Below, in pieces: positions 1-48,535 of a stretch of 64,000 nt of DNA (positions are counted from its first letter, which is position 1; the number at the start of each line of letters is the position of its first letter). The translations under genes were made by a program, and so were the position numbers. The notes under the pieces are model-generated. The model did not search any database, was not told the DNA's origin, and worked only from the letters and a program-made list of their open reading frames with translations. The DNA lies in the IMG/VR virus record IMGVR_UViG_3300028920_000043, positions 47,211 through 111,210 of that record; one strand, written 5' to 3'. The DNA comes from a virus.

Positions 1-1383
1 CAGAGATCCTAAATAATCATAAGATATCTCTCCGTCTTCCTCAAGCTCTATAGAATAAGGCTCAGTTGATGGAGTAAAGCTTGCGATATGACGAGCGATT
101 CCATTGGAGAATCTAATCTCGTCATAGAATCCATCCATGGCTGAAAGCACTCCACCGTCAGATGTGGTGATGTTTGGAAATCTAAACTCGCCTGAGAAGT
201 TAGAAAATGTTATAGAGAGTGGTGCCGTTCCAAGAAGATCACCATCCTTGAAAGCATACACAGTATTTCCAAACCGACAGATTTCAAAATGTACCCACTC
301 TTCTCCTGATCCAAACCCTGGTGACCAATCAATGCCCACTCCGAAAGGCGTATCCGCGGATTCTCCGTTTACAAAAATATCAGAATTGCCACCAGCATTA
401 TAAGGGTAAACATAAATATAATTAGCAGCATCTTGTCTTTGGCTGAAGCCTGCCACTCTATCATCAGTTGAGTACAATGGGTAGAACCAAAAATCAATCG
501 TCCAGTCACCATTCAAAAACCAATCATCAGAATCTGGAATAGCAAAATACGAAACACTGTCAAAGCGTTTCCATAGGGATCCAAGTCCAAACTTCTTCAC
601 ACTCTTAATCAGTTTGGCTTGAGGTAATCCTGATGAAGTAAATACGTGTCCGGTATCATCCGTAAATGGAGTCGGATTGTCTGTTGTTTTTGGCTGGACT
701 AAAACTTTTGTATTTCCATCAACCGTGAACTTCGTAGTCGGCTTGGAAAAGTTTGTGGTGTATCGAGCATTATCACTAATCCGCAGAACTGCCATATGTC
801 CTTGCCAGGGTCTTACAATATTCTGCTTTCTTGCAAGATGAAACGTTCCACCACTGAAACTAGGAATGGTATCGGAATCCGTAGCCGTTCCAATGCTCGT
901 ACCATCCACAAACATTTCATAAGACGTTCCTTGCTTCACTACTGCCAAATGATAATACGTGAACTGATTCAAGCTAGTTGCTTTTGAGATATCTATGATT
1001 GTTGCACCACCGCTGACCACCGTGAATCTCAGATTAGCCCCATCATACCAAAAGCCCCAAGCATTGTTGTCATCAATTCTATATCCACAGATGCCATTAT
1101 CAACCGGCCACGAAATCGGATTGTAATTGTTGAACACGTAAGTCTCAACCGTAAAGTCTGTTCCGGTGAGATCAAAATCAGAATCGGAAGGAGAGTTGAA
1201 TCTATAACCACTGCTGAAGTACAGAATCCCTTCACCGTCCGTGAACGGATGGCGATATGCAGCGCACTGATTTTGACAAGTGACAGCATGATCCGAAGTA
1301 CTGAAATCTTTCAGACTCTGTTGCTTATCGTCTTCATCACAATGAAGAATCAGTTTGGTATATTCATCAATTCCGCCAGCCAT
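1..1383 (-). CDS. LamG/concanavalin-A-like domain tail fibre or receptor-binding protein (3'-truncated by the window edge; absent from the ORF track)
   Basis: Manual translation from the ATG at 1383 gives MAGGIDEYTKLILH...DFTVETY...YHLAVVKQG...MFVDG...DWTIDFWFYP...DEIRFSNGIARH, open to base 1. Paralogous to 2563..6288 (MPVGIDEYTKLL). Confidence 0.85.
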   Translation of the reverse strand, partial: MAGGIDEYTKLILHCDEDDKQQSLKDFSTSDHAVTCQNQCAAYRHPFTDGEGILYFSSGYRFNSPSDSDFDLTGTDFTVETYVFNNYNPISWPVDNGICGYRIDDNNAWGFWYDGANLRFTVVSGGATIIDISKATSLNQFTYYHLAVVKQGTSYEMFVDGTSIGTATDSDTIPSFSGGTFHLARKQNIVRPWQGHMAVLRISDNARYTTNFSKPTTKFTVDGNTKVLVQPKTTDNPTPFTDDTGHVFTSSGLPQAKLIKSVKKFGLGSLWKRFDSVSYFAIPDSDDWFLNGDWTIDFWFYPLYSTDDRVAGFSQRQDAANYIYVYPYNAGGNSDIFVNGESADTPFGVGIDWSPGFGSGEEWVHFEICRFGNTVYAFKDGDLLGTAPLSITFSNFSGEFRFPNITTSDGGVLSAMDGFYDEIRFSNGIARHIASFTPSTEPYSIELEEDGEISYDYLGSL

Positions 1384-2014
1384 CGTCTACTACCTCTTGG
1401 AATGCTGTATTAATAACAGAAGCATAAGCCTTTTCTATCTGAACTCCTGTCGGATTCAATTTCAAAAACTTAACTATTCTGTCAATTTCATATTTCTTAT
1501 TTCTCAATATTCTCTCGAAACTGCAATGGAGCACTGGATAAGCTCCATCATTCTCTCGTACCCAATTTATTATCTCCGTATAATCCCTCAAGCGATTGAG
1601 CATCGTCCCACTCAATGGAGCATCGTCAGCGTCTCGGTAGTGTATGGATTGCGCCATTGCAAACACATCTCTCCAGACACAGATGACATAAGGATTCCTC
1701 ACTGATGAAATAATCTGCTCTATGTAAGTATAGAGTAACTGATCCTTCCAGCCCCATACGTTGTAAGTTTTGTTTCTTTCTTCAATAATCGGTTTTATCT
1801 TATCACCGATCTCGCTGTGCTTGCCTTCAAAAGCCAATGGGTAACTCTCCCGAGTAAACGTCCAGTCCTCATAATCGTAACCAAACCAGGACGGCTCGAA
1901 CTCTTCAGTCTTTCCCATGAAGATTCCGAGATGATCCATGATCTTCGCCACGCTGGACGTTCCACCCCTACCCAGCCCCATTACTAATATAGTCTGACAG
2001 TTTGTATTTTCCAT
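1367..2014 (-). CDS. sulfotransferase family protein
   Basis: ILVMGLGRGGTSS (PAPS-binding PSB loop), WGWKD, VICVWRD and SFERIL motifs. Start moved to the ATG at 2014 (MENTNCQ). Confidence 0.75.
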   Translation of the reverse strand: MENTNCQTILVMGLGRGGTSSVAKIMDHLGIFMGKTEEFEPSWFGYDYEDWTFTRESYPLAFEGKHSEIGDKIKPIIEERNKTYNVWGWKDQLLYTYIEQIISSVRNPYVICVWRDVFAMAQSIHYRDADDAPLSGTMLNRLRDYTEIINWVRENDGAYPVLHCSFERILRNKKYEIDRIVKFLKLNPTGVQIEKAYASVINTAFQEVVDDGWRN

Positions 2015-2573
2015 TATCGAAATCAACCAATCTCTTTCTGTTGAACCCAACCAATGCCTTCTCAACTCTACTCTCATCAATATCCAAAAACGCCAACATC
2101 TTTTCAACTTCTCGTTTCGGATTCCGTATTAAGCGCTCGAAGCTCAATAGTAAAAATGGATACGAACTTTCAGAAATGAAATCCAAAATCTTTTGATATA
2201 TTACCAAACGACTTCGGATGAACGATTTTGGAACATACTTAACCTTGTCTCTGTTTGTAACCGAATCAAATGCCGCTATAGGATCTCTGAATACAAAAAT
2301 CAATCTTGGGTTTCTAATCTCGTGAATAATCTCCAATCGATTAACCAAGAACGGATCCTTCCAACCCCAAATGTCAAACTGTTTATTCCGCTCTTCAATC
2401 TTAACGCGCATCTCATCCAGACTCTTTCCTACAAAATCTATATCCTCGAAATTTCCAGCCTCCTTGAATTGATAACCAAAGAATAATCCGGCACTGATGA
2501 GTATGCTGGCAATGGCAGAAGTGCCACCTCTTGCCGTTCCAAGAATAACAATTGTCTTTTCGTTAGTCAACAT
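1968..2573 (-). CDS. sulfotransferase family protein
   Basis: IVILGTARGGTS, WGWKDP, IFVFRDP and SFERLIRNP motifs; paralog of the neighbouring gene. Confidence 0.8.
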   Translation of the reverse strand: MLTNEKTIVILGTARGGTSAIASILISAGLFFGYQFKEAGNFEDIDFVGKSLDEMRVKIEERNKQFDIWGWKDPFLVNRLEIIHEIRNPRLIFVFRDPIAAFDSVTNRDKVKYVPKSFIRSRLVIYQKILDFISESSYPFLLLSFERLIRNPKREVEKMLAFLDIDESRVEKALVGFNRKRLVDFDNGKYKLSDYISNGAG

Positions 2574-6327: not shown

Positions 6328-6843
6328 TTATGACCCGGCTGTCTGGCCTTTAAGTCTCAATGTCGCCGGAACTGACGCGTCTGCCTGAGTACCTGCTGGA
6401 ATCGTTTGCTTCAACCAAACTCCTTGTGCTGATCCGGCAGTCAAGCTGCCACTGTTGGCAACATCGATTGCCGCGCCTTCTGATGGAGCGTCAGCAAATA
6501 CGATGTCACTGGGTGCAGTGAGCGGATTGGGAATACTCTTGGTATCATCGAGTGACGATGCCAATCCGATCTGAATCTGCCCAGCGTGCTCTTGTGCCTG
6601 AATCCAAACCTTCGATGCTGTGAGCGGTGTGGTTGCGTTCTTGTTCTTTGCGAATACCTTCTGGAACCGAATCACATCCGAACCGCCTGCTTCTTGTGCT
6701 GCGACTGTATAGAACACCTGACCCAATGTTCCATCCAGCTCTGTCTCTGAACCGTCTTCTCCGCCACCTGCCGGTGCACCATCACTGGGCGCCATCATTG
6801 ACGAAAGAATCCACAATAGATCACTTGCGACTACTGGAGACAT
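6328..6843 (-). CDS. putative tail-associated structural protein
   Basis: AGGAGG RBS before the ATG at 6843; beta-rich, with LTAGSAQGVWLKQTIPAG; lies in the tail module. Confidence 0.55.
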   Translation of the reverse strand: MSPVVASDLLWILSSMMAPSDGAPAGGGEDGSETELDGTLGQVFYTVAAQEAGGSDVIRFQKVFAKNKNATTPLTASKVWIQAQEHAGQIQIGLASSLDDTKSIPNPLTAPSDIVFADAPSEGAAIDVANSGSLTAGSAQGVWLKQTIPAGTQADASVPATLRLKGQTAGS

Positions 6844-8749
6844 TCGTTTCCTCCTTTCCAAGTTCTGTCAAACTTTTCACCTTGATATTGGGGCCATATA
6901 AAATTCCCGCATCGGTGATATTAAAAAACTCAATTTGCTTATAAGCGCTTGTCAATTCTACCAAGGTTTCTCGCATCTCGTTATAGAGCAGATTGGTAAT
7001 TACTGCTCCGTCTTTAACATCCTTGGCAATCAATAAACCTTCTTTCTGAATATCCTCATATCTTATCGTCTCATCGTAATACTTTTTACCGCCGGTGTAT
7101 GCCAAATCAACTCCACCAATAAGAATCTTTTTGCAACCCATACCGATCAAACAACTGATACCGGTAAATACAACGGATAAGGCAGATCCGAGAATCGTCA
7201 GTTTAACTTCATCCAGTATGTTAGGATGTACCGATCCAATTCCCATAGTATGGAAAAATCTCTTCTTACCCTTCCACGCTTTAATCACTTCAGGGTGAAG
7301 TACTGACGACGCCAGCATCTCATGCTTCGATGTATCCACTCCATCAAAATGCCTTACCACATTATCCTCTGGATGGATTGCAATAAAGTAGTCTGGCTCT
7401 ATACCCCACTCACACATAATCCTGAAACCTGAATTAGCACCTATTACTATGCGCTTGGTTCTTCCCATCCCCAGAAATCCCTTCAAATCGTCTTTAATAT
7501 TATTAACTGATGGTGCGGAGGAGATCAATACTCCCACCTTATCCTCAGACGATTTGAATAGATCATCCAGAGTTTTCGATTTGGAAAGCTCAGGTTTATT
7601 CCTCTTGAAGTTTTCTGCCCAAACATTCTTCCACGTATTCATGGTTAAATCATTCACCGCTTCTCTTGCATTTCCCAACGTAACTGGTACCATAACTCTA
7701 TTCTCATCAGCGCCAGTAAACTTCAAAACATCTTTGGCTCTGTTTTCATAAGTATGATTTTTTAGAACGTGACTTCTTGCTCGTGCAATCAACTGCTCAC
7801 GTTCTTTTCTGTTCTTCATGTAGTGCTCTATGATCTTCGGTATCTCGTCTATCTCATCATAAAGTGCTACAATATCATCCGGAAATAGCTCCTTGACTGC
7901 TTCACGCTTTTTCCATGTCAGCAATAATGCTCCTGCCGCGGGCACTTCAAATACTCTCGGAGATACCGTGGTAGATAAAATCCCCGGATTGGTTCTTCCG
8001 TATTCAGAAACCATTTCGTTTCTGGGAATATCCAATGCTATCTTTGTACCGGCATCGAACTTCGCCATTTCTTCTATTGATACGCTTCCCCTTCTCCAAA
8101 TAGAATTCAAATAATCCGACTTGAAATTTCTTCTTGAGTTTCCAACGATCTTCAAGCGGTACCGTTTCAATTCCTTTTCTAGCTTATCCAGTGCATCCAT
8201 TCTTTCCGCGAATAATGATCCGCCAATTAAGACATCAGACAAATAGTTTCTGGGAACGCGGCGTGGGTAAAATACATTAGGATCCACAGCAGTGGGTAAG
8301 TACATCGTCTTATCTTCACCATGTACTTTTACTGTATTCTTTTCATTGGTAAAGACATAATCATAGTAAGGCGTGAATTCTTTTGAAACATTTACCTGCT
8401 GAGGCTCATCTGTCAAATATACTGCTGTTTTGATTCCAAGCTTCTTTACATTGGTTATTATCCCAGTATGAATATTGGCACCATGAATGACAAAGACAAA
8501 ATCTATTGCATACCTCACGCAATAGTTCAAGATGCCTTGAGCAATAAGCTCAAAGAAATCATTCTTGGACATATTCAATTCTGGATCGAATATCGAGTTT
8601 ACTTGAATCGCTTTTTGAAAGAAATCCAAAACCCGATTGGTTTCATAATCCCAGACAGTATGCCCAAGACGCCGAAATGCTTCTGAAAAGCCTTCACCAA
8701 CATCCTTCGTACTAAACGCAAATCCACTACCCACCATTAAAATATTCAT
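6821..8749 (-). CDS. glycosyltransferase fusion: CgeB-like GT-B domain plus Maf/DUF115 (MAF_flag10-like) domain
   Basis: N-terminal half: YLTDEP, YLPTAVDP..FYP, RVFEVPAAG, HTYENRA. C-terminal half: LISSAPSV, IGANSG...GIEPDY, GCKKILIGGVDLAY. Confidence 0.75.
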   Translation of the reverse strand: MNILMVGSGFAFSTKDVGEGFSEAFRRLGHTVWDYETNRVLDFFQKAIQVNSIFDPELNMSKNDFFELIAQGILNYCVRYAIDFVFVIHGANIHTGIITNVKKLGIKTAVYLTDEPQQVNVSKEFTPYYDYVFTNEKNTVKVHGEDKTMYLPTAVDPNVFYPRRVPRNYLSDVLIGGSLFAERMDALDKLEKELKRYRLKIVGNSRRNFKSDYLNSIWRRGSVSIEEMAKFDAGTKIALDIPRNEMVSEYGRTNPGILSTTVSPRVFEVPAAGALLLTWKKREAVKELFPDDIVALYDEIDEIPKIIEHYMKNRKEREQLIARARSHVLKNHTYENRAKDVLKFTGADENRVMVPVTLGNAREAVNDLTMNTWKNVWAENFKRNKPELSKSKTLDDLFKSSEDKVGVLISSAPSVNNIKDDLKGFLGMGRTKRIVIGANSGFRIMCEWGIEPDYFIAIHPEDNVVRHFDGVDTSKHEMLASSVLHPEVIKAWKGKKRFFHTMGIGSVHPNILDEVKLTILGSALSVVFTGISCLIGMGCKKILIGGVDLAYTGGKKYYDETIRYEDIQKEGLLIAKDVKDGAVITNLLYNEMRETLVELTSAYKQIEFFNITDAGILYGPNIKVKSLTELGKEETNVSSSRK

Positions 8750-8792: not shown

Positions 8793-9173
8793 TCACGCAA
8801 TCGATCTTAAAAAGTTAGCACTGAATGTAGCCCAATGCCTGTCTTCAGTGCCGTAAGACAAGCCCTGAAAAAAACAATTAGAATATTCATAGGTAAAATC
8901 ATACAAGGATGCCGGAGCTGATACCGCCGATAGCTGTTCCAGTAACTGCTGTAAGTAGGCTATCAATGTCATCCTGCTCCGAGTCTCTTGGGTGATCCAA
9001 CCCGCCACTGAAAGAGACTGTTGACCCCCTCCGAGATCTTTAATATAAACTCCTTCGGCTCTCGGTATTTGTTCCGTCAGCAAATTACGCTCAACATTAG
9101 GAACAGCATAAGAATGAGTTCCAATCTTTACTGTTCCAAACGTAACTACCGAACCGTGTTGAAGTATTGCCAT
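8793..9173 (-). CDS. putative distal tail (Dit-like) protein
   Basis: Directly follows the tape measure gene; IPRAEG...DLGG...LSVAGWI...FSANF pattern. Confidence 0.5.
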   Translation of the reverse strand: MAILQHGSVVTFGTVKIGTHSYAVPNVERNLLTEQIPRAEGVYIKDLGGGQQSLSVAGWITQETRSRMTLIAYLQQLLEQLSAVSAPASLYDFTYEYSNCFFQGLSYGTEDRHWATFSANFLRSIA

Positions 9174-11575
9174 TATCCGCTCCAGTAAGCTCTGCGTTCA
9201 CTCAATGACGTTTGTCCGGATCCCTCAACTTCAAACTGACGTAACCGAACTTGAATAGCACCCAGAGCTTTTCGTTCTGCTTCGGTATTAATATACTGCT
9301 TCTGTTGATCAATGAGATCTAAAAATCCCTTATATGTTTCTTCTTTCATTGTACGCGACTTGCCCAGCAACTCGCGCAGCAGTTTTACCTGTGATAGTAA
9401 TTGTGGTACTACATTTCTGTCCTCAACCACTGCCTCTCCCCCAGTCTTTGCTTCCTTAGGCGCTACTGCTTTCTTTGCTTCGACCGACGCTGCTTTCATT
9501 CGAGAGCCAGCCTCTTTTGCAATACCAGCACCGAAAGGCTGTCCCTTTCCTACATCGGATACCTTCTTCCAAAGATTACCAATTTCTTGTTGCATCAAAG
9601 GAGTAATTCCCTTAACTTTGTTCCGCATATCATCAATCTTAGACTGAGGAATGAGATCCGGCGCTTTGGTTTCGATAATTTGCCGGAGACCCTCATTTAT
9701 GGTCTCACCAGCTTTCTTAGCTTGAATCTTTGCTATCTTGGAAGAGTCACCTAGAAAATCAACCTTTCTTACCTTGATTACTTTTTCCAAACGCAAAGCA
9801 TAAATGGTCTGCTGTGCCTTCTTAATAAAAAAATTCAAGGCATTGTTTAACGATGTAGTAATAGCGGCTGACATTTTCCAAAACATTTGCTGAGCAGTTC
9901 CTGATACTACCTTAAACATTCCAATCATTCTTCCCTTGAAGCTCGCCATCTGTTGCCAAATCCAATTTATTGCTTCGGCAACTTGAGTAGCCATGCTCCA
10001 GAAGGCTACTTGTACCGTTGGTATTGCAGCCTTGATTAATTGAATTCCGATTATGATTCCTTCATAAATTTTCTTTCCTACCCACATTGCCGCAGAACCA
10101 ATTCCTCTTATGGTAGAAGTAATGGAACTGATTACTTCTTTGTTCTTTGCTAAATCCTGCAACTTCAAACCAAGCTGAGTAACCCCTTCTACAAAAGCAC
10201 TACCTGACTCTTTTGCAGGACCAAACAAGTCGATACCAATAGCTCCGACCATATCGATTATTCCGCGTGCCAATGAAGAAACCGCTACCCATATTTTATT
10301 CACCATGGTTCTGAAAGTTTCTGAAGTTCTGACAGACTTCGCCACGGCGCCTATCCAGGCTGCGGTTCTTCTTATGATATTTGACAGCTTCTGGGAATAC
10401 GTCTCGAATACTTCAATGGAAAGAGCCTGCATTGCCGACTTGAGAATATGCAAAGCAGGAAACAATCCTTTATCCATTTCCTTCTGCATTGAAATTGTTC
10501 TTCCTTCAATACCCTGCAATCCTGCTTGATATTTTTTGATTGCTACCGATCCTTTATCCAGTAGCGCCTTTACTGCTGGACCACCACGTTCACCAAACAA
10601 CTCGAAAGCTGTTGCCGAATCCAATCCGGCCTTCTCCATCTTCTGAATGATCTCGGTGAGCGAATTGGTTTTGGGATCGAGATCCGCAACCTCAAGGCCG
10701 TACTTCTTCAATGCCTTGGTCAATGCGGGAGAGGCCTTATACAAAGCTGAAAACATTCTCCTCAAACCTGTGCCGGCCATGCCTCCCTTCAAACCTGACT
10801 CCGCAAGAACGTCCAATGCCGCGGCGGCTTCTTTCACGCTTGTCTTCGCTGTTGTGATTGCCGGAGCCACGAACTTAAATGCTTCCTTCATTTCCATTAT
10901 ATTGGTATTGGCTTGCGCTGAAGCAACAGTAACAATATCCATTACTTCTCCAGCATCCTTCACTTTCTTTGCCAATGGGCCATAAATACGAGCAACGATA
11001 TCCGCAGAATCCGCTAATGCTATATTATTCGCTTGTGCTCCTGCAAGTACCGTACTCATAGCACCAATTGTTTTATCCGCATTGAATCCAGCACGAGTCA
11101 ATAACTCCATACCATCCGCGGCTTCTTTAGCAGTGAACTTTGTAGTCGCTCCTAGATCTTTCGCTTTTGCCCTCATTCTATCCAGAGCTTCCGCAGTATA
11201 ATTTCCTGCGCCGACCATTACTCCTTTTATAATGTTCATCTGCTTTTCAAATGTACCACCTACATAGGTCATTCCGGCAAATGCTATGGTTCCGATTGTC
11301 CCCATTCTCTTTGCCGCTCGACCCAAGCCCTGCACTCCATTGGCGGCCGCTGTTATTCCCTTACTCAATCCTGCAAACGAAACCGCTGCAACCTTTCTCA
11401 TGGATGCCGCCATGAGTGTAAGCGATTTAGAAGCAACTGAAGCAGAGGCAGCAACAGTCCGTGCCATTCCGGATAGTGACGCCAACTTTGCCGCCGCCAT
11501 TCTTATGCCAGTATTGAATTTCCTTACATTGGCAGAAACACGAACTGAAAGATCACCAATCACTTGTGCAGGCAT
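9173..11575 (-). CDS. tail tape measure protein (TP901-type core)
   Basis: IGDLSVRVSA N-terminus; AKDLGATTKFTAKEAADGM, ANTNIMEMKEAFKFVAP and GLKGGMAGTGLR motifs; Ala-rich, 800 aa. Confidence 0.95.
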   Translation of the reverse strand: MPAQVIGDLSVRVSANVRKFNTGIRMAAAKLASLSGMARTVAASASVASKSLTLMAASMRKVAAVSFAGLSKGITAAANGVQGLGRAAKRMGTIGTIAFAGMTYVGGTFEKQMNIIKGVMVGAGNYTAEALDRMRAKAKDLGATTKFTAKEAADGMELLTRAGFNADKTIGAMSTVLAGAQANNIALADSADIVARIYGPLAKKVKDAGEVMDIVTVASAQANTNIMEMKEAFKFVAPAITTAKTSVKEAAAALDVLAESGLKGGMAGTGLRRMFSALYKASPALTKALKKYGLEVADLDPKTNSLTEIIQKMEKAGLDSATAFELFGERGGPAVKALLDKGSVAIKKYQAGLQGIEGRTISMQKEMDKGLFPALHILKSAMQALSIEVFETYSQKLSNIIRRTAAWIGAVAKSVRTSETFRTMVNKIWVAVSSLARGIIDMVGAIGIDLFGPAKESGSAFVEGVTQLGLKLQDLAKNKEVISSITSTIRGIGSAAMWVGKKIYEGIIIGIQLIKAAIPTVQVAFWSMATQVAEAINWIWQQMASFKGRMIGMFKVVSGTAQQMFWKMSAAITTSLNNALNFFIKKAQQTIYALRLEKVIKVRKVDFLGDSSKIAKIQAKKAGETINEGLRQIIETKAPDLIPQSKIDDMRNKVKGITPLMQQEIGNLWKKVSDVGKGQPFGAGIAKEAGSRMKAASVEAKKAVAPKEAKTGGEAVVEDRNVVPQLLSQVKLLRELLGKSRTMKEETYKGFLDLIDQQKQYINTEAERKALGAIQVRLRQFEVEGSGQTSLSERRAYWSG

Positions 11576-12693: not shown

Positions 12694-13956
12694 TTAAGTT
12701 AACAAAGAGCTGACTGTCTCAATCCTAGAATCCCATGAGCATTCAAGAACTTCTTTATACAGATTTTCAGCTCTTAAATTTCTTTCAGAGCTATCTCGCT
12801 CTACTGCTTTCATTTTATCAACCAAATCATCCTCATCTACAACTGCAAATTCTTCTCCTTTATAATAATCAGAAGTACCCAAATAAAGATCTTTATCCGC
12901 TTCCCGAAATCCTTTCACGCGCACCAAATAAGAATTGCCGTGGTTCAAATAGTCTCGGAATCCACCCCAATCTGTTTGAATCACTGGCTTCTTCATAGCA
13001 CCGAATTGCAATCCGGGCAACCATGTACTTTCTCCCTTGGAAGCGCCGATACCACAATCCATTCTTGCCATGAGATGCGGCATTAAATTCGGATGAAGCG
13101 AAACATCACAGATCTTTATTGTAGGAATCTGTGAGTTAAGGAAATCAGACGTTATATCAGAATACTCTTTTTGTATCGTCCAATGATCCTTTATGAATCT
13201 CTTCCAACCATAAGGCCGATTTGAATACTTGGCAAACATTAAAAGAGCCACGTCCTTCCGGCCTTCAAAAGCACGAATAAAACTTCTTACTATTTCCTTC
13301 ACTCCTTTTCTCGCATTCCATGATCCAACGAATCCAAAAACAAACTTATCCTGCAATCCTTCAATCTTCATGGGTTCCACGTTTGGATTATACTTGTTAA
13401 TATCGACACCCAAACGAACTACCTTTACCGAGCATCCGGTTACTTTCAAATACTCGAATCTCACCTTGTCCAATGGCGTAGGCATCCAAACTTCGTCCAC
13501 CTGATCAAACCATTTCTTCATATACTTTGGAAACTTTCGGCTCTCCGTCATCGTCCACGCTATTTTTGTTTTTACTTTCCGCTTCCTTTCATGCCACATC
13601 CAACCAGGGCCGGCAATCAATAGCATAGTAGCCTTTTTTGGATTGACTCTCCGGAATGTATAGCGTAGAATTCGCTGATACTCAAATGGATCCAGATCTA
13701 TCAGCGATGGTATTTTCTCAAGCTGTATGTGAAACTTATGACTCTCATCCAATCGTGTCAATACTTCTCTCGTATGCTCCGCATATCCTCCAAGAAAATC
13801 AGTGAAGCCTTTTATCAATAATGGAGTGCTGTCAATATTAGACAATGAAAAGAAATTAAATGTCCGATCATTACAAGTCACGGATTCCAAGCTCTCTGGA
13901 TTGAGCGTTGGAAAATCAGACTTCTTTTGGTTTACTTTTCTTGTATCTAACTTCAT
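12694..13956 (-). CDS. glycosyltransferase family 4 (GT-B)
   Basis: GYAEH, WTMTE, LGVD...YNP, FVFGFVGSWNARKG, SKGESTWLP and KPVIQTDWGG motifs. Confidence 0.9.
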   Translation of the reverse strand: MKLDTRKVNQKKSDFPTLNPESLESVTCNDRTFNFFSLSNIDSTPLLIKGFTDFLGGYAEHTREVLTRLDESHKFHIQLEKIPSLIDLDPFEYQRILRYTFRRVNPKKATMLLIAGPGWMWHERKRKVKTKIAWTMTESRKFPKYMKKWFDQVDEVWMPTPLDKVRFEYLKVTGCSVKVVRLGVDINKYNPNVEPMKIEGLQDKFVFGFVGSWNARKGVKEIVRSFIRAFEGRKDVALLMFAKYSNRPYGWKRFIKDHWTIQKEYSDITSDFLNSQIPTIKICDVSLHPNLMPHLMARMDCGIGASKGESTWLPGLQFGAMKKPVIQTDWGGFRDYLNHGNSYLVRVKGFREADKDLYLGTSDYYKGEEFAVVDEDDLVDKMKAVERDSSERNLRAENLYKEVLECSWDSRIETVSSLLT

Positions 13957-14438
13957 TTCATCTTATACACTTTCTTGAACCGACTCAATAATACGCGCTC
14001 ACCATATTTGATTGCCGGCCTCATAAACGGTTGTTTCTTTTGTCCTTTGACCCTCTTTCTTACTATCTCTGTTCCATCCGGCAACTCAAATGCCATTGCT
14101 TCCTGCGTCTTCGGATAGATCCATTGCTTCTTCGGACCGTACATTCCAGTTCCATACTCAACAAAGTACGCATAAGGAATATCTGTCTTTCCTTGCATCC
14201 GTGTTCCAACATAACCCTCAAAAACATGAGGACCGCTTTTGGTCATCCAACTCTCAATGCTTGCTGCCAAAGCACCTGATTCACCAACCGGAGCTTTTTC
14301 AGTTGCTCGCGTCTCCACCGCCAGCAGTATTTGCTGAAATGCCATCTTTGCTTCCAATTGCTTTTGTTTGCGAACCATTGCAAACTTCCGCATGAGGCTT
14401 GGAAGCCCGATGACTTTTATCTCTACTACGCCTGCCAT
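13953..14438 (-). CDS. HK97 gp10-family neck/tail-completion protein
   Basis: APVGESGALAASI, YAYFVEYGTG and QPFMRPA motifs. Confidence 0.9.
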   Translation of the reverse strand: MAGVVEIKVIGLPSLMRKFAMVRKQKQLEAKMAFQQILLAVETRATEKAPVGESGALAASIESWMTKSGPHVFEGYVGTRMQGKTDIPYAYFVEYGTGMYGPKKQWIYPKTQEAMAFELPDGTEIVRKRVKGQKKQPFMRPAIKYGERVLLSRFKKVYKMK

Positions 14439-14785
14439 CAGTCGTTCTCGTCATCAGTATGCTGAATCTCATCAGCAAGAATTTCCAAATGATGTCCTTG
14501 TCCACCTGCATCGTGAGGCTTAATTATTTTATACCTATCCGAGTTGACCCAGATCTCGTAGTTATTTTTTACTGGCGCATTGATAGAAGCGAAGATAACC
14601 ACATCGGCATTTGTAACTTCACCAAACTCCTCCTGCTCCTCCTTAGCGCTTATGGGCTGAACTCGAACTCTAACCTCTGATGCTATGATCTGCAGAACAT
14701 TCTTGGACTCACCGAACTCGTTTACCGATCCAGCAGTCCATTTCTTAATAACGGCCGTAGTATTCAATAAAGAACTGAAAGACAT
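14438..14785 (-). CDS. head-tail adaptor/head closure protein (SPP1 gp16-like)
   Basis: NEFGE...VRVQP...YKII...GHHLEI pattern; position in the neck module. Confidence 0.8.
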   Translation of the reverse strand: MSFSSLLNTTAVIKKWTAGSVNEFGESKNVLQIIASEVRVRVQPISAKEEQEEFGEVTNADVVIFASINAPVKNNYEIWVNSDRYKIIKPHDAGGQGHHLEILADEIQHTDDEND

Positions 14786-14802
14786 TTCTGATTCCTCAAG
14801 AC

Positions 14803-15237
14803 TTATGGATCGTTGTTTGCTGGATCTTCCTCATACACCGTGTCAAAGTTTATTGGGTATGACCATATATCCAGATCAGAATCATATACCGCGAATCCTC
14901 CTCCCGACTTTACAAACAAGTTTACTACCAAGCCACCGGTGCTCAGTGCTACATTCTGTTTGTTTAGTAAGGTAATCAATCGCTCACCAATATCACTCAC
15001 CAATGTCTTGTAAGGCTGATCATCCGACCCCTTGACCCACGCAGTAATTATTATGGTGTCGCTTGCTGATGGAAATACAGCATGGCTCTCGCCAGGCGTC
15101 TCGCGTATAGTGATCATCGGATAAGTCATGTCCTTCTCAGGATCGACCCATCCGGTTTTGACTTTCTTAACAGGACTGGGATAGAGCTGGTTGTCCTGCA
15201 TTATTCGCGTCAGGATATTTGGAATTAACAATGGCAT
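14803..15237 (-). CDS. putative tail terminator
   Basis: YPMITI...IITAW pattern; neck module. Confidence 0.55.
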   Translation of the reverse strand: MPLLIPNILTRIMQDNQLYPSPVKKVKTGWVDPEKDMTYPMITIRETPGESHAVFPSASDTIIITAWVKGSDDQPYKTLVSDIGERLITLLNKQNVALSTGGLVVNLFVKSGGGFAVYDSDLDIWSYPINFDTVYEEDPANNDP

Positions 15238-15887
15238 TATATTGCCTCCCCTACTATATCACCCGCACCACCATACCGAGACATGATGTCATCCATCTCC
15301 TCTTCGATGACTTGCTTGGGCGATAACGTTTCACCGGTTGACTTTTTCTTGTAGGAGTATCGACCAATCGTCTCGGCTATGATGTCACCGGTTGCTTCTC
15401 CTCCTTTGAACGTCAACGCTTTCTTGACCACAAACAAAGTGGCGAGTGCTATAATATCATTCGGAACTGTTGGCCATCCGAATATGCCAGTGATCTCGAT
15501 ATTCAACAGTCCGCGTTTCTCCGGGGAGTAATCAGGGCTTATCGTCCTGACGTAAGAACCGTCCACTTGCAAGTCCGAAAGATCATCCGCCCAACTGGTC
15601 AGGCGGATGTATCCTTCTGAAGTGTAGATCTTCATATTTGCAGCATCAACTTCGTTGCCATCAATCTTCAGACTGGAAATAGATTGGATCGGACCATGGG
15701 TCTCTCGCTGATTGATGTCGATGAAGTTCGAGTCAATCGAATCTATCTCTATTGTTTCTGATTCGGTATTGCCGAACTTTCCAAGATTAGAATTCACAAA
15801 ATCATCTGCTTCTTGGATCCATGTATCCGGAATATCCGCTTCGGCAATGCCATACTCTGTTACTTTTGTTTTATTTGTATATGGCAT
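15237..15887 (-). CDS. head-tail connector (gp6/gp15-like)
   Basis: MPYT.....Y...I.EA...VN, GWPTVPNDI...A and ETIGRYSY motifs. Confidence 0.8.
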   Translation of the reverse strand: MPYTNKTKVTEYGIAEADIPDTWIQEADDFVNSNLGKFGNTESETIEIDSIDSNFIDINQRETHGPIQSISSLKIDGNEVDAANMKIYTSEGYIRLTSWADDLSDLQVDGSYVRTISPDYSPEKRGLLNIEITGIFGWPTVPNDIIALATLFVVKKALTFKGGEATGDIIAETIGRYSYKKKSTGETLSPKQVIEEEMDDIMSRYGGAGDIVGEAI

Positions 15888-17447: not shown

Positions 17448-17942
17448 TTATTTGAACTGTATATCCCACACGTCCTTTCCCAGGACATCCCAAGAAATGC
17501 GTTCTTCATCAGGATTCTTTTTATTATATATCTCTGATCCGGTCGAGCAGAGAATAGTGTTCTGTTCCAAACTCATCCAGCCATGCCAGATTGTGGGAGG
17601 CACCACAAGCAGTTTCGGAGTTCTCGCGTGAATGTTGAAAATCTTCACCCGGTCCATATTGATATCCGGATCCCCAGACTTAGCCACCAATTCTGCTCCC
17701 GGGATATTATCTATCAATATGAACTTCGCGGATCCGTTGACAATGCAAAAGTAATCCCAGAGAATCCGGTGACGATGAAACGCCCTGACCGTCATCGATT
17801 GCATATCGCCTACCATATAGACCTGACCAAACTTCTCAAAGAACTCATCAGTCTCGTGGACGATTTCAAACAACCAACCGCGGTCATCCTCCATGACCTT
17901 CAAATCCACAAGCTTAACTCTATCCCACAAATCCATTTCCAT
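17448..17942 (-). CDS. rmlC: dTDP-4-dehydrorhamnose 3,5-epimerase-like cupin
   Basis: DDRGWLFE, FGQVY, VRAFHRH and LLVVPPTIWHGW motifs. Confidence 0.85.
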   Translation of the reverse strand: MEMDLWDRVKLVDLKVMEDDRGWLFEIVHETDEFFEKFGQVYMVGDMQSMTVRAFHRHRILWDYFCIVNGSAKFILIDNIPGAELVAKSGDPDINMDRVKIFNIHARTPKLLVVPPTIWHGWMSLEQNTILCSTGSEIYNKKNPDEERISWDVLGKDVWDIQFK

Positions 17943-23082: not shown

Positions 23083-23125
23083 AAAAGAAAAACGAAAGGA
23101 GAGCGGCTGGTGAGGGCCGCTCCCC
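23083..23125 (-). terminator. intrinsic terminator downstream of the major capsid gene
   Basis: Minus strand reads GGGGAGCGGC-cctcacca-GCCGCTCTCC followed by a T-rich tract. Confidence 0.8.
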
Positions 23126-23150
23126 TTCCTAGAGGCGGAACAGAATCCTA

Positions 23151-32486: not shown

Positions 32487-32490
32487 ACTC

Positions 32491-32838: not shown

Positions 32839-32847
32839 AATTCACCA

Positions 32848-37650: not shown

Positions 37651-37654
37651 TCCT

Positions 37655-38749: not shown

Positions 38750-38759
38750 GGTTTCAATC

Positions 38760-40499: not shown

Positions 40500-40538
40500 T
40501 AAAATCTTCTTTTCAAAATCTTAAACGGAGTTAAGATT

Positions 40539-43740: not shown

Positions 43741-45288
43741 TTAAGCTACATCATTGAATAAACTGGAAAGTAAGTATTCCATCTCTCGTGGATCCACATC
43801 AAAATCCATGAAAAGTTTTTCACCATCCATACTAATAATATCCTTCATCTTATCCTCAGCCGTCACCGATGGCTTGACAGCTGGTTGAGATTGAACGGGC
43901 TTAATCGGATTTCCACCTTGCGTCTGCTGTCCGGGAACGAAAGGAGCATCTCCCCACGGTACAGGTCCAAGTCCCTTCAATGCTCGAACTTCATTAATGG
44001 TATTGACCGCGTTCTGCACATAAGTCTTATCTATATTTGCTTGCGTTTCTACATCAGCGCGGTCAATATCATCAAAATCCGCTACCACATCATAAATACC
44101 AAGACCATCCTGAACGATCTCTTTGGTATATGTATAGGATTCCAAGGCTAAAATAGGCTTGATTGCGTTTGCTTTGAATACTTCAATCTGCTGAACTGAA
44201 TTGAGACGCCCAGTTCCCACATCTCTTATTCCAAGAACAATCGGTTGCATGGAATAACATGACATAACTTTCTGAAGCAACCATCTTGCATACTCCATGA
44301 ACTCCATGTCTTTATTCTTGCCCGTTAGATCGAGAAATTCTGGTTTAGTTCCCACAAATGCCATTTTATGAGAGCGCCCTTTGAATTGAGCCCTCCACCA
44401 ATCGGCAAAACGTTTCAGTGCCGGCTTCTTCATTCCTCCCAAACCAACAATGCCGGACGGCATTGCATTGTTCTGAAAGAACTCGAGATTGTGGCGATCA
44501 GCAAACAGATCGGCAGCGATTGTTTGCTTCAATGATTCCAGGGGTGACAATCCATAAACTGATCCGGGTTGCGGATATTGGATCATGTAGATCAGTTCAT
44601 CCTTTTGAAACTCTGCGGCAGGTTCTCTGGGATTTTCAGGAAGGTATTGTAGATATGCCCGATTCGGAATAAGATTGCCATGCTTGTTTATATTTTTTCG
44701 TATGTATCTTGATTCTTGATTATAGATCTCTGCCAACTTTCCGGTTGTATCTTTTACTTTCTCCATGCACCCAGAATCCGATACCAATAAATCCAGTATC
44801 GTCTTCTTTCTGATATCCATGAAGCTTTCTTTTTCGAGATTAGGATCTTCAAAGAAGTCCATAACCGCATCCATATTTCTCTTGGTCTTATCCGGAATGC
44901 CTGTTGCTTCAGGACGCTTGGGACGGACCCTTACATGGACTGCTGTTGCCGTCTTTACTATGAGATCAATTATTGCACGAGACCAGGAATGGCTCCGATA
45001 GACTCCCCACATGAGATCAAGGGAGACCAAAGGTTCTCTAGGTACCCCATTTCTTCCCCCGTACCCCATTGCAGTCCGTAACTGCTGATTAATCGTTCCG
45101 CGCCGATTGCTCGAATCTCCTCGGGGCTTACCAAAATCGGGTCCGGTATCATTGTCGTCCGCCTTTATCATCTCTGCCTTTCTTTCGATATGAACAGCAG
45201 GCACCGGCAAGACTTTTGTTTCCTCAGCTTCTGTTTCTGATCCAGGAGATGATCCCAGACGCTTGAAGAATGTAATAATTTTACTCAT
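43741..45288 (-). CDS. portal protein (HK97-type)
   Basis: DLLVSDSG, YGLSPLESL, FFQNNAMPSG, DMEF.E and TINEVR...GLGPVPWGD motifs. Confidence 0.95.
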   Translation of the reverse strand: MSKIITFFKRLGSSPGSETEAEETKVLPVPAVHIERKAEMIKADDNDTGPDFGKPRGDSSNRRGTINQQLRTAMGYGGRNGVPREPLVSLDLMWGVYRSHSWSRAIIDLIVKTATAVHVRVRPKRPEATGIPDKTKRNMDAVMDFFEDPNLEKESFMDIRKKTILDLLVSDSGCMEKVKDTTGKLAEIYNQESRYIRKNINKHGNLIPNRAYLQYLPENPREPAAEFQKDELIYMIQYPQPGSVYGLSPLESLKQTIAADLFADRHNLEFFQNNAMPSGIVGLGGMKKPALKRFADWWRAQFKGRSHKMAFVGTKPEFLDLTGKNKDMEFMEYARWLLQKVMSCYSMQPIVLGIRDVGTGRLNSVQQIEVFKANAIKPILALESYTYTKEIVQDGLGIYDVVADFDDIDRADVETQANIDKTYVQNAVNTINEVRALKGLGPVPWGDAPFVPGQQTQGGNPIKPVQSQPAVKPSVTAEDKMKDIISMDGEKLFMDFDVDPREMEYLLSSLFNDVA

Positions 45289-45304
45289 TGAAGATCCCCA
45301 AATA

Positions 45305-45417
45305 TTCAAGCAGAGCTAGTTCAAAAGCTTTCACGCATGAAAGCTAACCATCCAGTCCAATTTGAAACTTTCAAGCAGAGCTAGTTCAAAAGCTTTCACG
45401 CATGAAAGCTAATGAAC
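45305..45417. repeat. palindromic element pair, copies 4-5 (cores 45327-45344 and 45392-45409), 65-bp period
   Basis: ttcaagcagagctagttcaaaaGCTTTCACGCATGAAAGCtaa, twice; inverted copy of the 27.2-kb pair. Confidence 0.92.
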
Positions 45418-45448: not shown

Positions 45449-45637
45449 TTATGATCGATCAGACCCAGGAGAATCCTTAAACTTATCCTTAAGGGATTCC
45501 ACAAGATCTTTAAGCTCAATAAGGTTCTGATGAAAACCTCTCAATTCTATTATGACTATCAGCCCCAAGAGAGCATTAAGAAACCAAAAAATCAAAAAGC
45601 ATGTAAAGAATAAAGCATTCATATTAAGCAAATCCAA
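45449..45637 (-). CDS. small membrane protein
   Basis: Hydrophobic N-terminal half; between terminase and portal. Confidence 0.45.
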   Translation of the reverse strand: MDLLNMNALFFTCFLIFWFLNALLGLIVIIELRGFHQNLIELKDLVESLKDKFKDSPGSDRS

Positions 45638-47288
45638 TATCCGATCCGGACTCCGTTATGACATCATAAATAGAACCACTTACTGCGTCCCATACATCCT
45701 TAGTTCCTTTAGAGCCATCTTCAAAGCGCTTAGGATGATCTACTTTCTTTCCCCCTTTATCTTCTAACCCTTTCGCTTCTTTAACCAAAACAGGATGGTA
45801 TGGAATCAAGGCACGGTTATCTAGTATGCAAGCCTGTACTTCCTCAAAAACAGTCAAGCCTCTATCAACAGATAATAAATCGACATCGTAACCGCGTTCC
45901 TCTAACTGTTGTCTGGTATCTAAAGATAATGCTTGGTCAAATGTTATTACTCCAAACTGCATACCCAAACCGGATAGCTGATAGATAAGCTCTCGCACCA
46001 CTCGAAGTTTTACATTCTTATTGGGTTCGGGCTTCCACCATGCTATTATATCCGTCTGAATTATCGGCTCTTCCCAGTCCTCTTCCTCTTCATCGTCCTT
46101 CCTCTTCTTACCTGTTACGCTTTTCCAACCCTCCAGATGTGAAACAGCAAAAGCACAAGGATCTTTTATTGATCCCAGGTCACCATGGGCACAATAAATA
46201 GTTCCGCGTTGAGGTCTGAAATTTGGATCCAACTGCTTCTTAGTAATACTGAAATTATAAGACAAATCTTTTCTAAAATATTCGTCCAAGCTCTCTACTT
46301 GCTCTTCTGTTCCCCAAACCGAATTAACTGATCTGGTGGGAATGGCAGCAAAGTTTCGCCTGGCTTTGATTGGATTCTTTTTGAATTCTGATTTGAAATC
46401 ATCCTTGGATACCTTCTCATTTATTTCCCATGTAGCTTTCTGAGACACAAAAGCAGAATCTTTCTCTTTTCTTAACTCCTCAAACTTTTGCATCTCAAAA
46501 CCATCAACCGATCTTGGTGAGGTAATGCCGATGAGTTTATAATGATTTGGAAAACGTGTGAAGCATGAGTCATAAAACGTATCCCAGCATGCCTCCGCGT
46601 TTGGCTTGTCATTTACATCCGTGAAATATGCAAGCTCATCCAGTATACCAACTCTAACAGCATACCCCAACCAAGAAATCGATCTTGAGTTACCAGATAA
46701 TACAAAGAGATTCTTATTGAATCTAATCTCTCCCCCGAATGGTAAAAACTCACCGAGATCCAACCCTTTGAATGAGTGCTCGACTTGTCTGAACCATTCA
46801 GAATGTTTTAACCGATTAACTGTAGAACCAAAGACAACATCCTGGGCTTGGCGACCGGCAGTCGATGTATTTATATAAAATATGGGATCACCGGGCGCCA
46901 AACCATAAAAGGATTGAGGACTTCTGTAGCCCAAATCAATATAGGCCTGACGAGCCATAATACAAGCAACGGCAAAACTTTTACCACTCCCCTTTCCCCA
47001 TAATAAAACAGCCTGTCTCACATTTGGCTGATCAATGGCTATAAGGGTATCCAAAACTTTATTGAAAATCTTGCCGCCCTTCGCCGGTGGGAATAAAGGC
47101 TTACTCCAACGTTCCAAGGCCATAAATTCCCTTCCGAGATAAAACTCTTCAGCGTCAACTGGATACTCCTCATAAACGCCTTGTTCTTCTTTTATTCCCG
47201 TGGCGATTTGAGAGAGCATCCAACTAGGACTTACACGCTTCTCTTCTCGGCGTTTTTGTGCTGTAGGCCTATCCTGCAGAATTCCCAT
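45624..47288 (-). CDS. terL: terminase large subunit
   Basis: Walker A LWGKGSGKS, Walker B GILDEL, coupling motif ITSPR; RNase H-like HGDLG..KD and KVDHP...TKDVWDAV. Confidence 0.93.
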   Translation of the reverse strand: MGILQDRPTAQKRREEKRVSPSWMLSQIATGIKEEQGVYEEYPVDAEEFYLGREFMALERWSKPLFPPAKGGKIFNKVLDTLIAIDQPNVRQAVLLWGKGSGKSFAVACIMARQAYIDLGYRSPQSFYGLAPGDPIFYINTSTAGRQAQDVVFGSTVNRLKHSEWFRQVEHSFKGLDLGEFLPFGGEIRFNKNLFVLSGNSRSISWLGYAVRVGILDELAYFTDVNDKPNAEACWDTFYDSCFTRFPNHYKLIGITSPRSVDGFEMQKFEELRKEKDSAFVSQKATWEINEKVSKDDFKSEFKKNPIKARRNFAAIPTRSVNSVWGTEEQVESLDEYFRKDLSYNFSITKKQLDPNFRPQRGTIYCAHGDLGSIKDPCAFAVSHLEGWKSVTGKKRKDDEEEEDWEEPIIQTDIIAWWKPEPNKNVKLRVVRELIYQLSGLGMQFGVITFDQALSLDTRQQLEERGYDVDLLSVDRGLTVFEEVQACILDNRALIPYHPVLVKEAKGLEDKGGKKVDHPKRFEDGSKGTKDVWDAVSGSIYDVITESGSDIGFA

Positions 47289-47290
47289 GA

Positions 47291-48535
47291 TTACTCCTTA
47301 GCAGATGTCGACTCCGGTTCCTTTTCTTTTTCTTTCTCTGGCTCTTTGGTTTTGCTTGGTTTCTTCTTCAAATCCTTATCGAAGAATATTTGACCTGCTT
47401 GATACTGCTCAGCAGAGAAAGTACAGATTCTCTCGAGAATCTTAACCGCCCTCTTTCCCGTATCTTCAAGAGAGAGTGTGGTTTTCAATTTAGAAAGCTT
47501 ATCAGCTTTCTGTTTCTGCGCTTTCTTATCCTTGCCGTCTGATTCCGATGCCACTATAACTTCAATGGCTTTCTTTATGTAATCGCTCTCATCTCCCCAC
47601 TTAGCATAGGTAAGAAGATCCCCATACGTTTCCCGAAGTACCGGAAGATCGTAAGCGATACAAGGCTTATCAAGGCATAATGCCTCTCCCGGTGGCATAC
47701 CAAATCCCTCAAACGATGACGGAAATAGTAATGCCTTTGATTCTGCCAGATGATGAAACTTAGCCTCATCCCCAATCTCATCGATAAGGGAAATCTTCAC
47801 ATCCGACTTTCTTGCCAGGGATTCCAATGAACTTCGGATTTCAGGTTTCAGAAATCCACCGATCATTACCAACTCAAAATCCTTTCCCTGGCGCTTGAGC
47901 TCCGCGGCTACCCTTACAGGGGTCTTATAATTCTTATGCTCGATGAATCTGGAAATAAAGATGAGCTTGTCTTTTTCCTGCACATCCTTTATTTCCGAAA
48001 TGATTTTGGAATTGAGCGGGGTATTGAGAACGTAAAATGTCATCGGATTGGCCTCATCCAAATATTCCACCGCATACTTTTTACCGATCTCGGTGGAACA
48101 GAATATTCCGGAACAGCCCATTGCGGAAAACTTGATACCGCGCCATTGCTGTTCAACGTGCTTTGGAATATCACCGTTATACTTAACGCTGTATTCCCAG
48201 TTCGGAACATCAAAGATGAGAAGTAGCAGATGCTTCAGAAAGCGCTTTGCAAAGAACTTCGCACGTTCCGCGGCATCGAATGGAACTCCCATGACAAAAT
48301 CATAGTCATTGACTCGATTCTCAATCTGCTTTTCCCACTTCTCTGAGGTTACCACGCCAACGCTGGAATCCAACACACTCAGTACCGGTGATGGTCTTTC
48401 CGTCAAGACATCAACTCCAATACCCTGACCTACCAGAGCATTAGCAAGAAGACATGCATGATATTTTCCACCGGCATAGAACTTATAGTTACTGTTCATA
48501 AATAGGGCTACTTTACCCTTTTTGCCGAAACCCAT
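47291..48535 (-). CDS. glycosyltransferase family 4
   Basis: YAGGKYHA, FISRFIEHKN, FPSSFEGFGMPPGEAL and IAYDLPVLRE motifs. Confidence 0.9.
   Translation of the reverse strand: MGFGKKGKVALFMNSNYKFYAGGKYHACLLANALVGQGIGVDVLTERPSPVLSVLDSSVGVVTSEKWEKQIENRVNDYDFVMGVPFDAAERAKFFAKRFLKHLLLLIFDVPNWEYSVKYNGDIPKHVEQQWRGIKFSAMGCSGIFCSTEIGKKYAVEYLDEANPMTFYVLNTPLNSKIISEIKDVQEKDKLIFISRFIEHKNYKTPVRVAAELKRQGKDFELVMIGGFLKPEIRSSLESLARKSDVKISLIDEIGDEAKFHHLAESKALLFPSSFEGFGMPPGEALCLDKPCIAYDLPVLRETYGDLLTYAKWGDESDYIKKAIEVIVASESDGKDKKAQKQKADKLSKLKTTLSLEDTGKRAVKILERICTFSAEQYQAGQIFFDKDLKKKPSKTKEPEKEKEKEPESTSAKE

Follow-up and report, generated by a model that had tools for sequence, protein, structure and literature searches.

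Glycan-modifying enzymes set among the structural genes of an uncultured T5-like phage suggest that its virion is glycosylated

The stretch of DNA analysed here (the window) comprises the final 64 kb of a linear 111,210-bp IMG/VR virus record (IMGVR_UViG_3300028920_000043; completeness estimate ~80%) belonging to an uncultured, tailed, siphovirus-like phage with a T5-like head-to-tail gene order. Glycan-related genes lie inside its structural operon at five positions, three of which are kept in distant relatives, and therefore the phage probably sugar-coats its own particle. We consider it probable that soluble cytoplasmic enzymes glycosylate the virion proteins late in infection, with the capsid as the best-supported target.

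The original prediction had described 11 co-oriented glycan-related genes inside the structural gene order, and Pfam recovers all of them there on the minus strand (Table 1), which carries 100% of the window genes. The GT4-family glycosyltransferase (GT) said to stand directly before terL does abut that gene (64 bits in Pfam for the GT; PHROG 2 for terL). The series reported after the major capsid protein (MCP) gene, namely GT4-GT2-GT2, two methyltransferases, an RmlD-like protein, an RmlC-like protein and a short-chain dehydrogenase/reductase (SDR), is also borne out by Pfam, with the third GT domain assigned to the GT-A type by motifs. Other placements stand in part. The GT4 between neck and tail tube is upheld by Pfam and by its GT-B fold, but the tube assignment is weak. 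The CgeB-Maf fusion between distal tail and fibre genes is a fusion by both Pfam and fold, but the 'distal tail' label (8793-9173) found no confirmation. Among the two sulfotransferases placed between LamG fibre genes, one (1968-2573) scores above family cut-offs, while the other (1367-2107) falls below them yet is clearly its paralogue.

The conservation of these positions was followed in 63 related viral loci obtained with an alignment-based MCP scan (a single-sequence MCP scan of viral contigs found none). In the 41 relatives with MCPs 23-51% identical and at least 2.5 kb downstream of the MCP gene, the MCP gene is followed by a homologue of the window GTs at a distance of up to 200 nt in 23 and of up to 2.5 kb in 30, 34 have one anywhere in the flank, and the presence of the GT on the MCP tree takes just 6 state changes. 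The first post-MCP gene of 31 relatives matches only GT families in Pfam. Domain architectures vary between the full GT4-GT2-GT2, GT4 and GT2 behind an N-terminal extension, and a ~200-amino acid (aa) unknown domain that precedes the third GT2 domain. A Pfam census of the 115 other open reading frames (ORFs) within 9 kb after the MCP gene yields 14 CgeB-like GTs, 8 GT2s, several methyltransferases and one epimerase/dehydratase, besides DegT aminotransferases, pyruvyl transferases and MptE-like proteins (2 of each); the clade therefore has a cassette of sugar-tailoring genes that keeps its place behind the capsid gene and varies in content. The relatives showed no counterparts of the RmlC-like, RmlD-like and 365-aa methyltransferase genes.

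Beyond the capsid gene, the closer relative G015 (MCP 46% identical) has the GT after MCP, a GT4 gene that adjoins the tube gene on its upstream side and the fusion as the second gene past the tape measure, and G006 (a complete genome of 109.6 kb, MCP 36%) likewise has the GT after MCP, with GT4 and fusion at matching places. The GT4 lies directly before the tube gene in 4/7 loci with a detected tube homologue; homologues of the window's tube-adjacent GT4 also precede the tube gene in G005, G006, G011 and G013, and full-length CgeB-Maf homologues occur in G006, G011 and G015. A synteny survey of relatives, which the original prediction had proposed as a check, finds non-random gene positions behind MCP, ahead of the tube and past the tape measure, though not before terL or for the sulfotransferase pair. 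The nearest cultured phages by MCP (~25% identity) are the T5-like siphoviruses (Demerecviridae) of ~110 kb, which share the same backbone order (terL-portal-protease-MCP-head completion-...-tube-...-tape measure), whereas their operon holds no glycan enzymes. Measured on that enzyme-free backbone, the placement of the predicted enzymes is beyond chance.

The capsid-adjacent cassette opens with a 908-aa GT. Its N-terminal domain matches Pfam GT4-conflict (48 bits), and the E-x7-E motif of the GT4 C-terminal Rossmann domain lies at residue 268. Domain 2 carries a DxD-type motif (FLDSDDI), and an alignment of 16 sequences identifies the third domain as a genuine GT-A from the conserved motifs LLNDDV, QHAGV, AVTFA, NDIDFC and H-ES-TR, within which N-D-D, Q-H and V-T-F are invariant. 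Between the MCP and GT genes is a strong terminator-like hairpin, which fits low, catalytic expression of the enzymes and probably keeps MCP in large excess over them. The 203-aa methyltransferase has a homologue at the same position in G015, and its N-terminus resembles that of the 365-aa methyltransferase. The RmlD-like protein reaches 136 bits against TIGR01214 (cut-off 224) and lacks the C-terminal third (~50 aa short). The cupin scores above the Pfam cut-offs for both FdtA and dTDP_sugar_isom (TIGR01221, 20.9 versus 155.75 bits), and on these profile scores it is FdtA-like to the same degree as RmlC-like; its FHRHR motif resembles the HxH motif of FdtA. The SDR has no TDE dehydratase motif, finds GalE as its top, sub-cut-off NCBIfam match, gains 33 bits against the 4,6-dehydratase model TIGR01181 (cut-off 365) and has a 41% identical homologue in G015. 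The dTDP-L-rhamnose pathway would require partners that were not detected in the 111-kb record (~80% complete), to which all absence searches here apply: neither an RmlA nucleotidyltransferase nor an RmlB 4,6-dehydratase was found. The deoxyhexose-containing coat that had been proposed is accordingly uncertain, with the SDR GalE-like and the cupin equally FdtA-like. For the supply of CMP-nonulosonic acid no CTP_transf_3 was found in the record (NeuB/PseI were not searched). A phmmer search of the PDB with the third GT domain, the CgeB-Maf fusion and the 365-aa methyltransferase returned nothing useful.

The two enzymes flanking the tail genes were modelled with AlphaFold2. The tube-adjacent GT4 (mean confidence, pLDDT, 79) adopts a complete GT-B fold over residues 44-420, and its top PDB match is the chlorovirus NY2A glycosyltransferase 3oy2 (Z 32.4, root-mean-square deviation (rmsd) 3.0, 343 residues), which leads many other GT4 enzymes only narrowly. 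Its E-x7-E motif is found only at 397 and 405. Residues 1-40 are disordered (pLDDT <50) with lysines kept in relatives, and this N-terminal extension might be a docking peptide. In the fusion (pLDDT 80), residues 1-350 form a CgeB-like GT-B domain (2jjm, Z 26.6), while residues 360-635 superpose on residues 234-514 of the Magnetospirillum Maf 5mu5 (Z 24.1, rmsd 3.0 Å, 239 residues), of which only the central part is aligned. The MptE-like match (PF01973, 75.6 bits versus a cut-off of 34.6) covers positions 2-170 of 171, and there is a weak match to a PseD domain (NCBIfam). About 20 representatives of 50%-identity clusters, among 1.84 billion representatives, have the full fusion architecture. 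Maf proteins are described in PMC3426422 and PMC4065374 as cytoplasmic flagellin O-glycosyltransferases, which modify the subunits of a helical filament in the cytoplasm before assembly (PMC4065374). Like Aeromonas caviae Maf1 and Magnetospirillum 5mu5, the fusion has an MptE-like/DUF115 domain, modelled with the fold of the 5mu5 centre; unlike them, it has a CgeB-like GT-B N-terminus, leaves the flanking domains of 5mu5 unmatched and is encoded after a phage tape measure. The Maf fold supports a virion protein as target because the cited Maf members glycosylate flagellin, a protein.

The glycan enzymes have zero predicted membrane helices, and the record holds no priming phosphoglycosyltransferase, no MraY/WecA-type enzyme and no Wzx flippase. 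A phage-encoded lipid-carrier route is therefore unlikely, and direct cytoplasmic transfer is the simplest reading. Candidate acceptor residues are present: the MCP ends in ...SLEQPSAS and the putative tube protein in ...MTKQTS. GT-linked MCPs usually finish with a short Ser/Thr-rich tail behind a conserved 'NL', for example LSTTIVS and LDAPSTWS in relatives, and several GT-free MCPs end abruptly. Complex prediction for the 908-aa GT with MCP residues 240-323 scored 0.00 in a run without a control, which is evidence neither way.

Domain identities, two modelled folds, the absence of predicted membrane helices and the conservation of gene positions are what the analysis shows; substrates, sugars and a function of the coat are conjectured as follows. 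The capsid-adjacent three-domain GT would build a short oligosaccharide on the MCP, possibly on its Ser/Thr-bearing C-terminal tail. The substrates would be host nucleotide sugars, re-tailored by the phage cupin, RmlD-like reductase and GalE-like SDR, and the methyltransferases may cap the glycan. The tube-adjacent GT4 and the CgeB-Maf fusion would glycosylate tail components, while the strong terminator 3' of the capsid gene would keep the enzymes at catalytic levels. In such a scheme each enzyme might decorate the sub-assembly encoded beside it, a conjecture of the original prediction. The terL-adjacent GT4 and the sulfotransferase pair would be lineage-specific additions, the pair perhaps adding sulfate.

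Several observations weigh against this proposal. Two of the five enzyme positions, before terL and at the sulfotransferase pair, are unique to this genome; no GT precedes terL in any of 27 relatives, and the sulfotransferase of G006 is unrelated and lies outside the recognised structural genes. Searches of the record for NTP_transferase, APS_kinase and CTP_transf_3 (CMP-sugar synthetase) found none, and activated donors must therefore be host-derived. A Ser/Thr-rich MCP tail occurs in 35/43 GT-linked proteins versus 3/11 without a GT, an association that is non-significant when relatedness is taken into account (sign test over 5-6 independent pairs, p ~0.6). The GT-B fold matches the T4 DNA alpha-glucosyltransferase (Z 24.6) about as well as it matches protein and lipid GTs, and lipid-linked glycans of the host are further possible substrates for soluble GT4 and GT2 enzymes.

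The last point leads to an alternative in which the enzymes remodel envelope glycans of the host late in infection (O-antigen, teichoic acid, S-layer or flagellin/pilin receptors), so that progeny do not stick to debris or superinfection is blocked, the late-operon position reflecting timing only. Surface-polysaccharide pathways typically use enzymes of the GT4, GT2, RmlC/D-like, methyltransferase and sulfotransferase kinds, lipid-linked intermediates are the usual substrates of peripheral soluble GTs, the known Maf substrates are host flagellins and the phage relies on host precursors. Against this, the record is without a priming enzyme, a flippase or a membrane-bound Gtr-type component, and neither the tight adjacency to MCP, tube and tape-measure genes at 36-46% MCP identity nor a cassette anchor that stays fixed while its content varies would be expected of enzymes acting on the envelope; we regard host remodelling as unlikely.

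Still less probable is that the genes are horizontally acquired morons of mixed or virion-unrelated function, their positions being insertion hot spots at permissive boundaries. The terL-adjacent GT4 and the sulfotransferases, found in this genome only, and the highly variable cassette content among relatives fit such an origin, and both the boundary behind MCP and that ahead of the tube gene commonly host morons. However, retention of a GT after MCP in 30/41 deeply diverged relatives with 6 state changes implies selection, the catalytic and cofactor motifs are intact, and neighbouring genes abut closely or overlap, with Shine-Dalgarno sites at the junctions. A pure moron reading suits the two unique positions and not the three conserved ones. 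Hypermodification of phage DNA by the GTs, as in T4 glucosylation or 5-hydroxymethylcytosine-glycan systems, is very improbable: the resemblance of the GT-B domains to the T4 alpha-glucosyltransferase, the GT4-conflict match of the 908-aa GT and a 7-deazaguanine cluster that shows phage investment in DNA modification speak for it, but the record has no thymidylate-synthase-like hydroxymethylase and no C5 DNA methylase (Tet/JBP was not found either, in a search whose control gave no signal), replication and DNA-modification genes form a block separate from the late structural operon that holds the enzymes, and we know of no Maf, sulfotransferase or sugar methyltransferase among DNA-glycan enzymes.

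Glycosylation of the virion by the phage's own enzymes is the reading that we prefer. A more far-reaching version, that a widespread clade of distantly T5-like sediment phages of roughly 90-130 kb builds position-specific glycan coats by dedicated enzymes, the MCP-adjacent GT for the capsid, the tube-adjacent GT4 for the tube and the CgeB-Maf fusion for the distal tail or fibres, with the lectin-like fibres or their glycans sulfated in this phage, is in our view doubtful; if true, it would be the first case of a sulfated phage virion and of a Maf-type enzyme that acts on a phage tail. Sulfation is weakly supported by the sequences. Both sulfotransferases have an RGGTS P-loop-like motif and an RNP motif that aligns to RNPKD of SULT1A, and the product of 1968-2573 gives a weak profile match to human SULT1A (E 0.008). 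The true start of the 1367-2107 gene is probably the ATG near 2014. That the two ORFs are one frameshifted gene was rejected because each has its own N-terminal P-loop-like motif and all shared blocks. A word-index search with the sulfotransferase returned only the query, a pattern scan of viral contigs gave zero relatives, and a literature search found no account of phage virion sulfation.

Table 1. Positions in the window of the glycan-related genes and of the structural landmarks around them
Feature	Position	Strand	Basis and remarks
GT4 glycosyltransferase, 419 aa	47291..48550	-	Pfam Glycos_transf_1, 64.3 bits; abuts terL on its upstream side
Large terminase, terL	45624..47288	-	PHROG 2, E 4e-11; homologues adjoin the portal gene in relatives
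Portal	43741..45309	-	Pfam Phage_portal, 143 bits
Major capsid protein, HK97-fold	23151..24122	-	Pfam Phage_capsid, 71 bits; 113 database homologues
Strong hairpin, intrinsic-terminator-like	23094..23129	-	14-bp stem, T tract; between MCP and GT genes
Three-domain GT4-GT2-GT2 glycosyltransferase, 908 aa	20318..23044	-	Pfam GT4 73.6 bits, GT2 117 bits; NCBIfam
S-adenosylmethionine (SAM) methyltransferase, 203 aa	19776..20387	-	Pfam Methyltransf_11, weak, 24.3 bits; motif IDLGCGS
RmlD-like 4-ketoreductase, 236 aa	19061..19771	-	Pfam RmlD_sub_bind, 137 bits; motifs STDYVFDG, YAVTK
Methyltransferase with two methyltransferase-like halves, 365 aa	17963..19060	-	Pfam Methyltransf_11, residues 222-307
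Cupin, FdtA/RmlC-like sugar-nucleotide isomerase/epimerase	17448..17942	-	FdtA 33.8 bits, dTDP_sugar_isom 29.3 bits; FHRHR motif
Zn-ribbon protein, 91 aa	16953..17228	-	Pfam Zn_ribbon_8; G015 has a homologue (45% identity) in the matching position
Extended SDR, GalE-like	15899..16936	-	Pfam Epimerase, 110 bits; motifs TGGLGYIG, ASSAAVYG, YAEAK
Neck genes	13953..15887	-	Four ORFs including a 144-aa ORF
Head-tail adaptor-like	15237-15887	-	PHROG 442
Head completion	14438-14785	-	Pfam Phage_HCP
gp10-like	13953-14438	-	Pfam HK97-gp10_like
GT4 glycosyltransferase, 420 aa	12694..13956	-	Pfam Glyco_trans_1_4, 29.5 bits (cut-off 27); directly before tube gene
Putative tail tube, 132 aa	12274..12672	-	Weak: Phage_tube_2, 23.4 bits (sub-cut-off); PHROG 290
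Tape measure	9173..11575	-	Pfam PhageMin_Tail, 116 bits
CgeB-Maf fusion	6821..8749	-	Pfam CgeB-like GT, 86 bits; MptE/Maf, 75.6 bits
Fibre-like protein, four LamG/ConA-like lectin domains, 1241 aa	2563..6288	-	Pfam Laminin_G_3, 226 bits, 4 stretches
Sulfotransferase, 201 aa	1968..2573	-	Sulfotransfer_3 30.3 bits, Sulfotransfer_1 27.8 bits, both above cut-offs
Second sulfotransferase, tandem paralogue	1367..2107	-	Pfam 19.2 bits versus cut-off 27; 35-39% identical to its neighbour
Second LamG fibre-like protein, N-terminal part	1..1383	-	Pfam; full protein 806 aa, continues past the window start

Experimental demonstration of virion glycosylation by phage enzymes is, to our knowledge, confined to a few mycobacteriophages, in which it was reportedly described by Freeman et al. 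2023. In Che8, Corndog and Myrna, the C-termini of capsid and tail-tube proteins are modified by phage GTs, which Corndog supplements with an O-methyltransferase, and the modification shields particles from antibody binding, according to PMC12619734, PMC12363180 and PMC11600133. The present phage is likewise a siphovirus with phage-encoded GTs (five GT-bearing genes), methyltransferases (two genes) and a Ser/Thr-bearing MCP tail. Unlike the mycobacteriophages, it places its enzymes at five positions in the structural operon rather than in one cluster, and adds sugar-nucleotide tailoring enzymes, a Maf-type domain and sulfotransferases. When the 908-aa GT was compared by tblastn with 50,697 phage records, none of the 72 matches at E <= 1e-8 was to a Mycobacterium phage; judged from this one protein and at tblastn sensitivity, the predicted system is analogous and not homologous to mycobacteriophage glycosylation.

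In the chlorovirus PBCV-1, the soluble multidomain proteins A064R (two GTs and a methyltransferase) and A111/114R (three GTs) build the capsid glycan, which includes methylated rhamnose, in the cytoplasm (PMC7826918). Virus-encoded soluble multidomain GTs are common to both systems, and the PDB structure that the tube-adjacent GT4 matches best is the chlorovirus enzyme 3oy2. The enzymes are similar at the level of fold only, and chloroviruses differ from this phage in being eukaryotic giant viruses with a double-jelly-roll capsid, N-linked glycans and no capsid-adjacent operon. Among archaeal viruses, a GT lies downstream of the MCP gene in Adnaviria, and GuangzhiV1, a tailed virus of Asgard archaea, has a locus with 3 GTs, GMD and a methyltransferase (PMC13700489). 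These cases share with ours a GT directly after the capsid gene, or a locus of GT, dehydratase and methyltransferase genes in a tailed virus, and have been read as modification of virion proteins; there as here, the reading was drawn from sequence. They belong to other lineages, whereas this phage has DnaB, a DnaG-type primase, RecA, PolA and strong Shine-Dalgarno sites.

The structural backbone into which the enzymes are set was confirmed for MCP, prohead protease, portal, head completion, gp10-like, tape-measure and LamG fibre genes. In the direction of transcription, a 188-aa ORF is followed by the first GT4 (47291-48550), terL and the portal (Pfam, PHROGs, NCBIfam), then by a block of ~12 kb with large unknown ORFs, a MuF gene, a 494-aa ORF, the prohead protease and MCP. 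After the hairpin come the 908-aa GT, the methyltransferase, the RmlD-like gene, the two-part methyltransferase, the cupin, the Zn-ribbon protein and the SDR, and then the adaptor-like gene, the 144-aa ORF, head completion, the gp10-like gene, the second GT4 and the putative tube. Two small ORFs, the tape measure, a 126-aa ORF, the fusion and a 177-aa ORF lead to the fibre with four LamG domains, the two sulfotransferases and the second LamG fibre. Strong Shine-Dalgarno sites precede most genes. The terL-adjacent GT4 is a paralogue of the N-terminal domain of the 908-aa GT (~30% identity, BLASTP E 1e-38) with E-x7-E motifs at residues 262 and 281; where this genome has that extra GT4, four related loci (L005, L006, L039 and L053) have a LamG-domain protein upstream of terL or portal. 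Searching the phage collection by blastn with terL and portal gave zero matches.

The ~12-kb block between portal and MuF (30855-42392) comprises nine ORFs (543, 115, 655, 629, 142, 171, 364, 579 and 617 aa) with hardly any family matches, and is missing in G006 and G015, where portal, protease and MCP adjoin. Its 655-aa protein has a beta-helix-like Atlas model of low confidence, its 617-aa protein matches PHROGs for tail fibre and head decoration, its 171-aa protein is C92 amidase-like and its 142-aa ORF has a homologue within the G006 tail region. A tRNA-Ser(GCT) called by ARAGORN at 33687-33779 (-) is probably a false positive, because it lies inside the 655-aa ORF and is without Rfam support; Rfam found no tRNA and no other RNA family over the window. 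Two small ORFs 3' of the portal gene (43413-43724, 103 aa; 43040-43393, 117 aa) encode strongly hydrophobic N-termini (KD19 >2.1), and their products could be membrane or internal proteins.

Outside the window, the record encodes replication proteins of bacterial type: DnaB, DnaG-type primase, RecA, a clamp-loader-like ATPase, an SNF2 helicase, ParB and PolA, the last fused to a uracil-DNA-glycosylase domain and encoded near the 7-deazaguanine cluster. This cluster (L003 11770-16521; genome 30.7-35.5 kb) contains QueC, a class-V aminotransferase-like protein, a fusion of PRTase (phosphoribosyltransferase) with FolE and a radical-SAM QueE-like protein. Also in the non-structural part of the genome, genes for a MoxR-type AAA+ ATPase and a VWA-domain protein form a pair (L003 1044-3547). 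The single sequencing run that contains the record is a DNA run of a marine sediment metagenome, probably the source sample; a search of sequencing runs listed no RNA run with it. The protein-database entry of this MCP lies on a 121,302-bp contig, ~10 kb beyond the IMG/VR record, and therefore a more complete assembly of the phage exists. Metagenome bins were considered as a guide to the host and rejected: the relatives fall in Chloroherpeton, Bacteroidales, Hodarchaeota and Lokiarchaeota bins, which are mutually inconsistent and look like binning artefacts. A Bacteroidota-type host is unlikely because of the strong Shine-Dalgarno sites at most genes.

If the virion is indeed glycosylated, a large group of environmental phages that has no relationship to the actinophages would have inherited capsid glycosylation from its ancestors and conserved it, and the variable tailoring of the glycan (methyl, amino, pyruvyl and perhaps sulfate) would mirror the diversity of bacterial surface antigens. 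The sticking of particles to sediment, mucus and host glycans would be affected, as would virome proteomics searches for modified peptides. The cassettes would also represent compact, soluble protein-glycosylating enzymes with a candidate substrate encoded next door.

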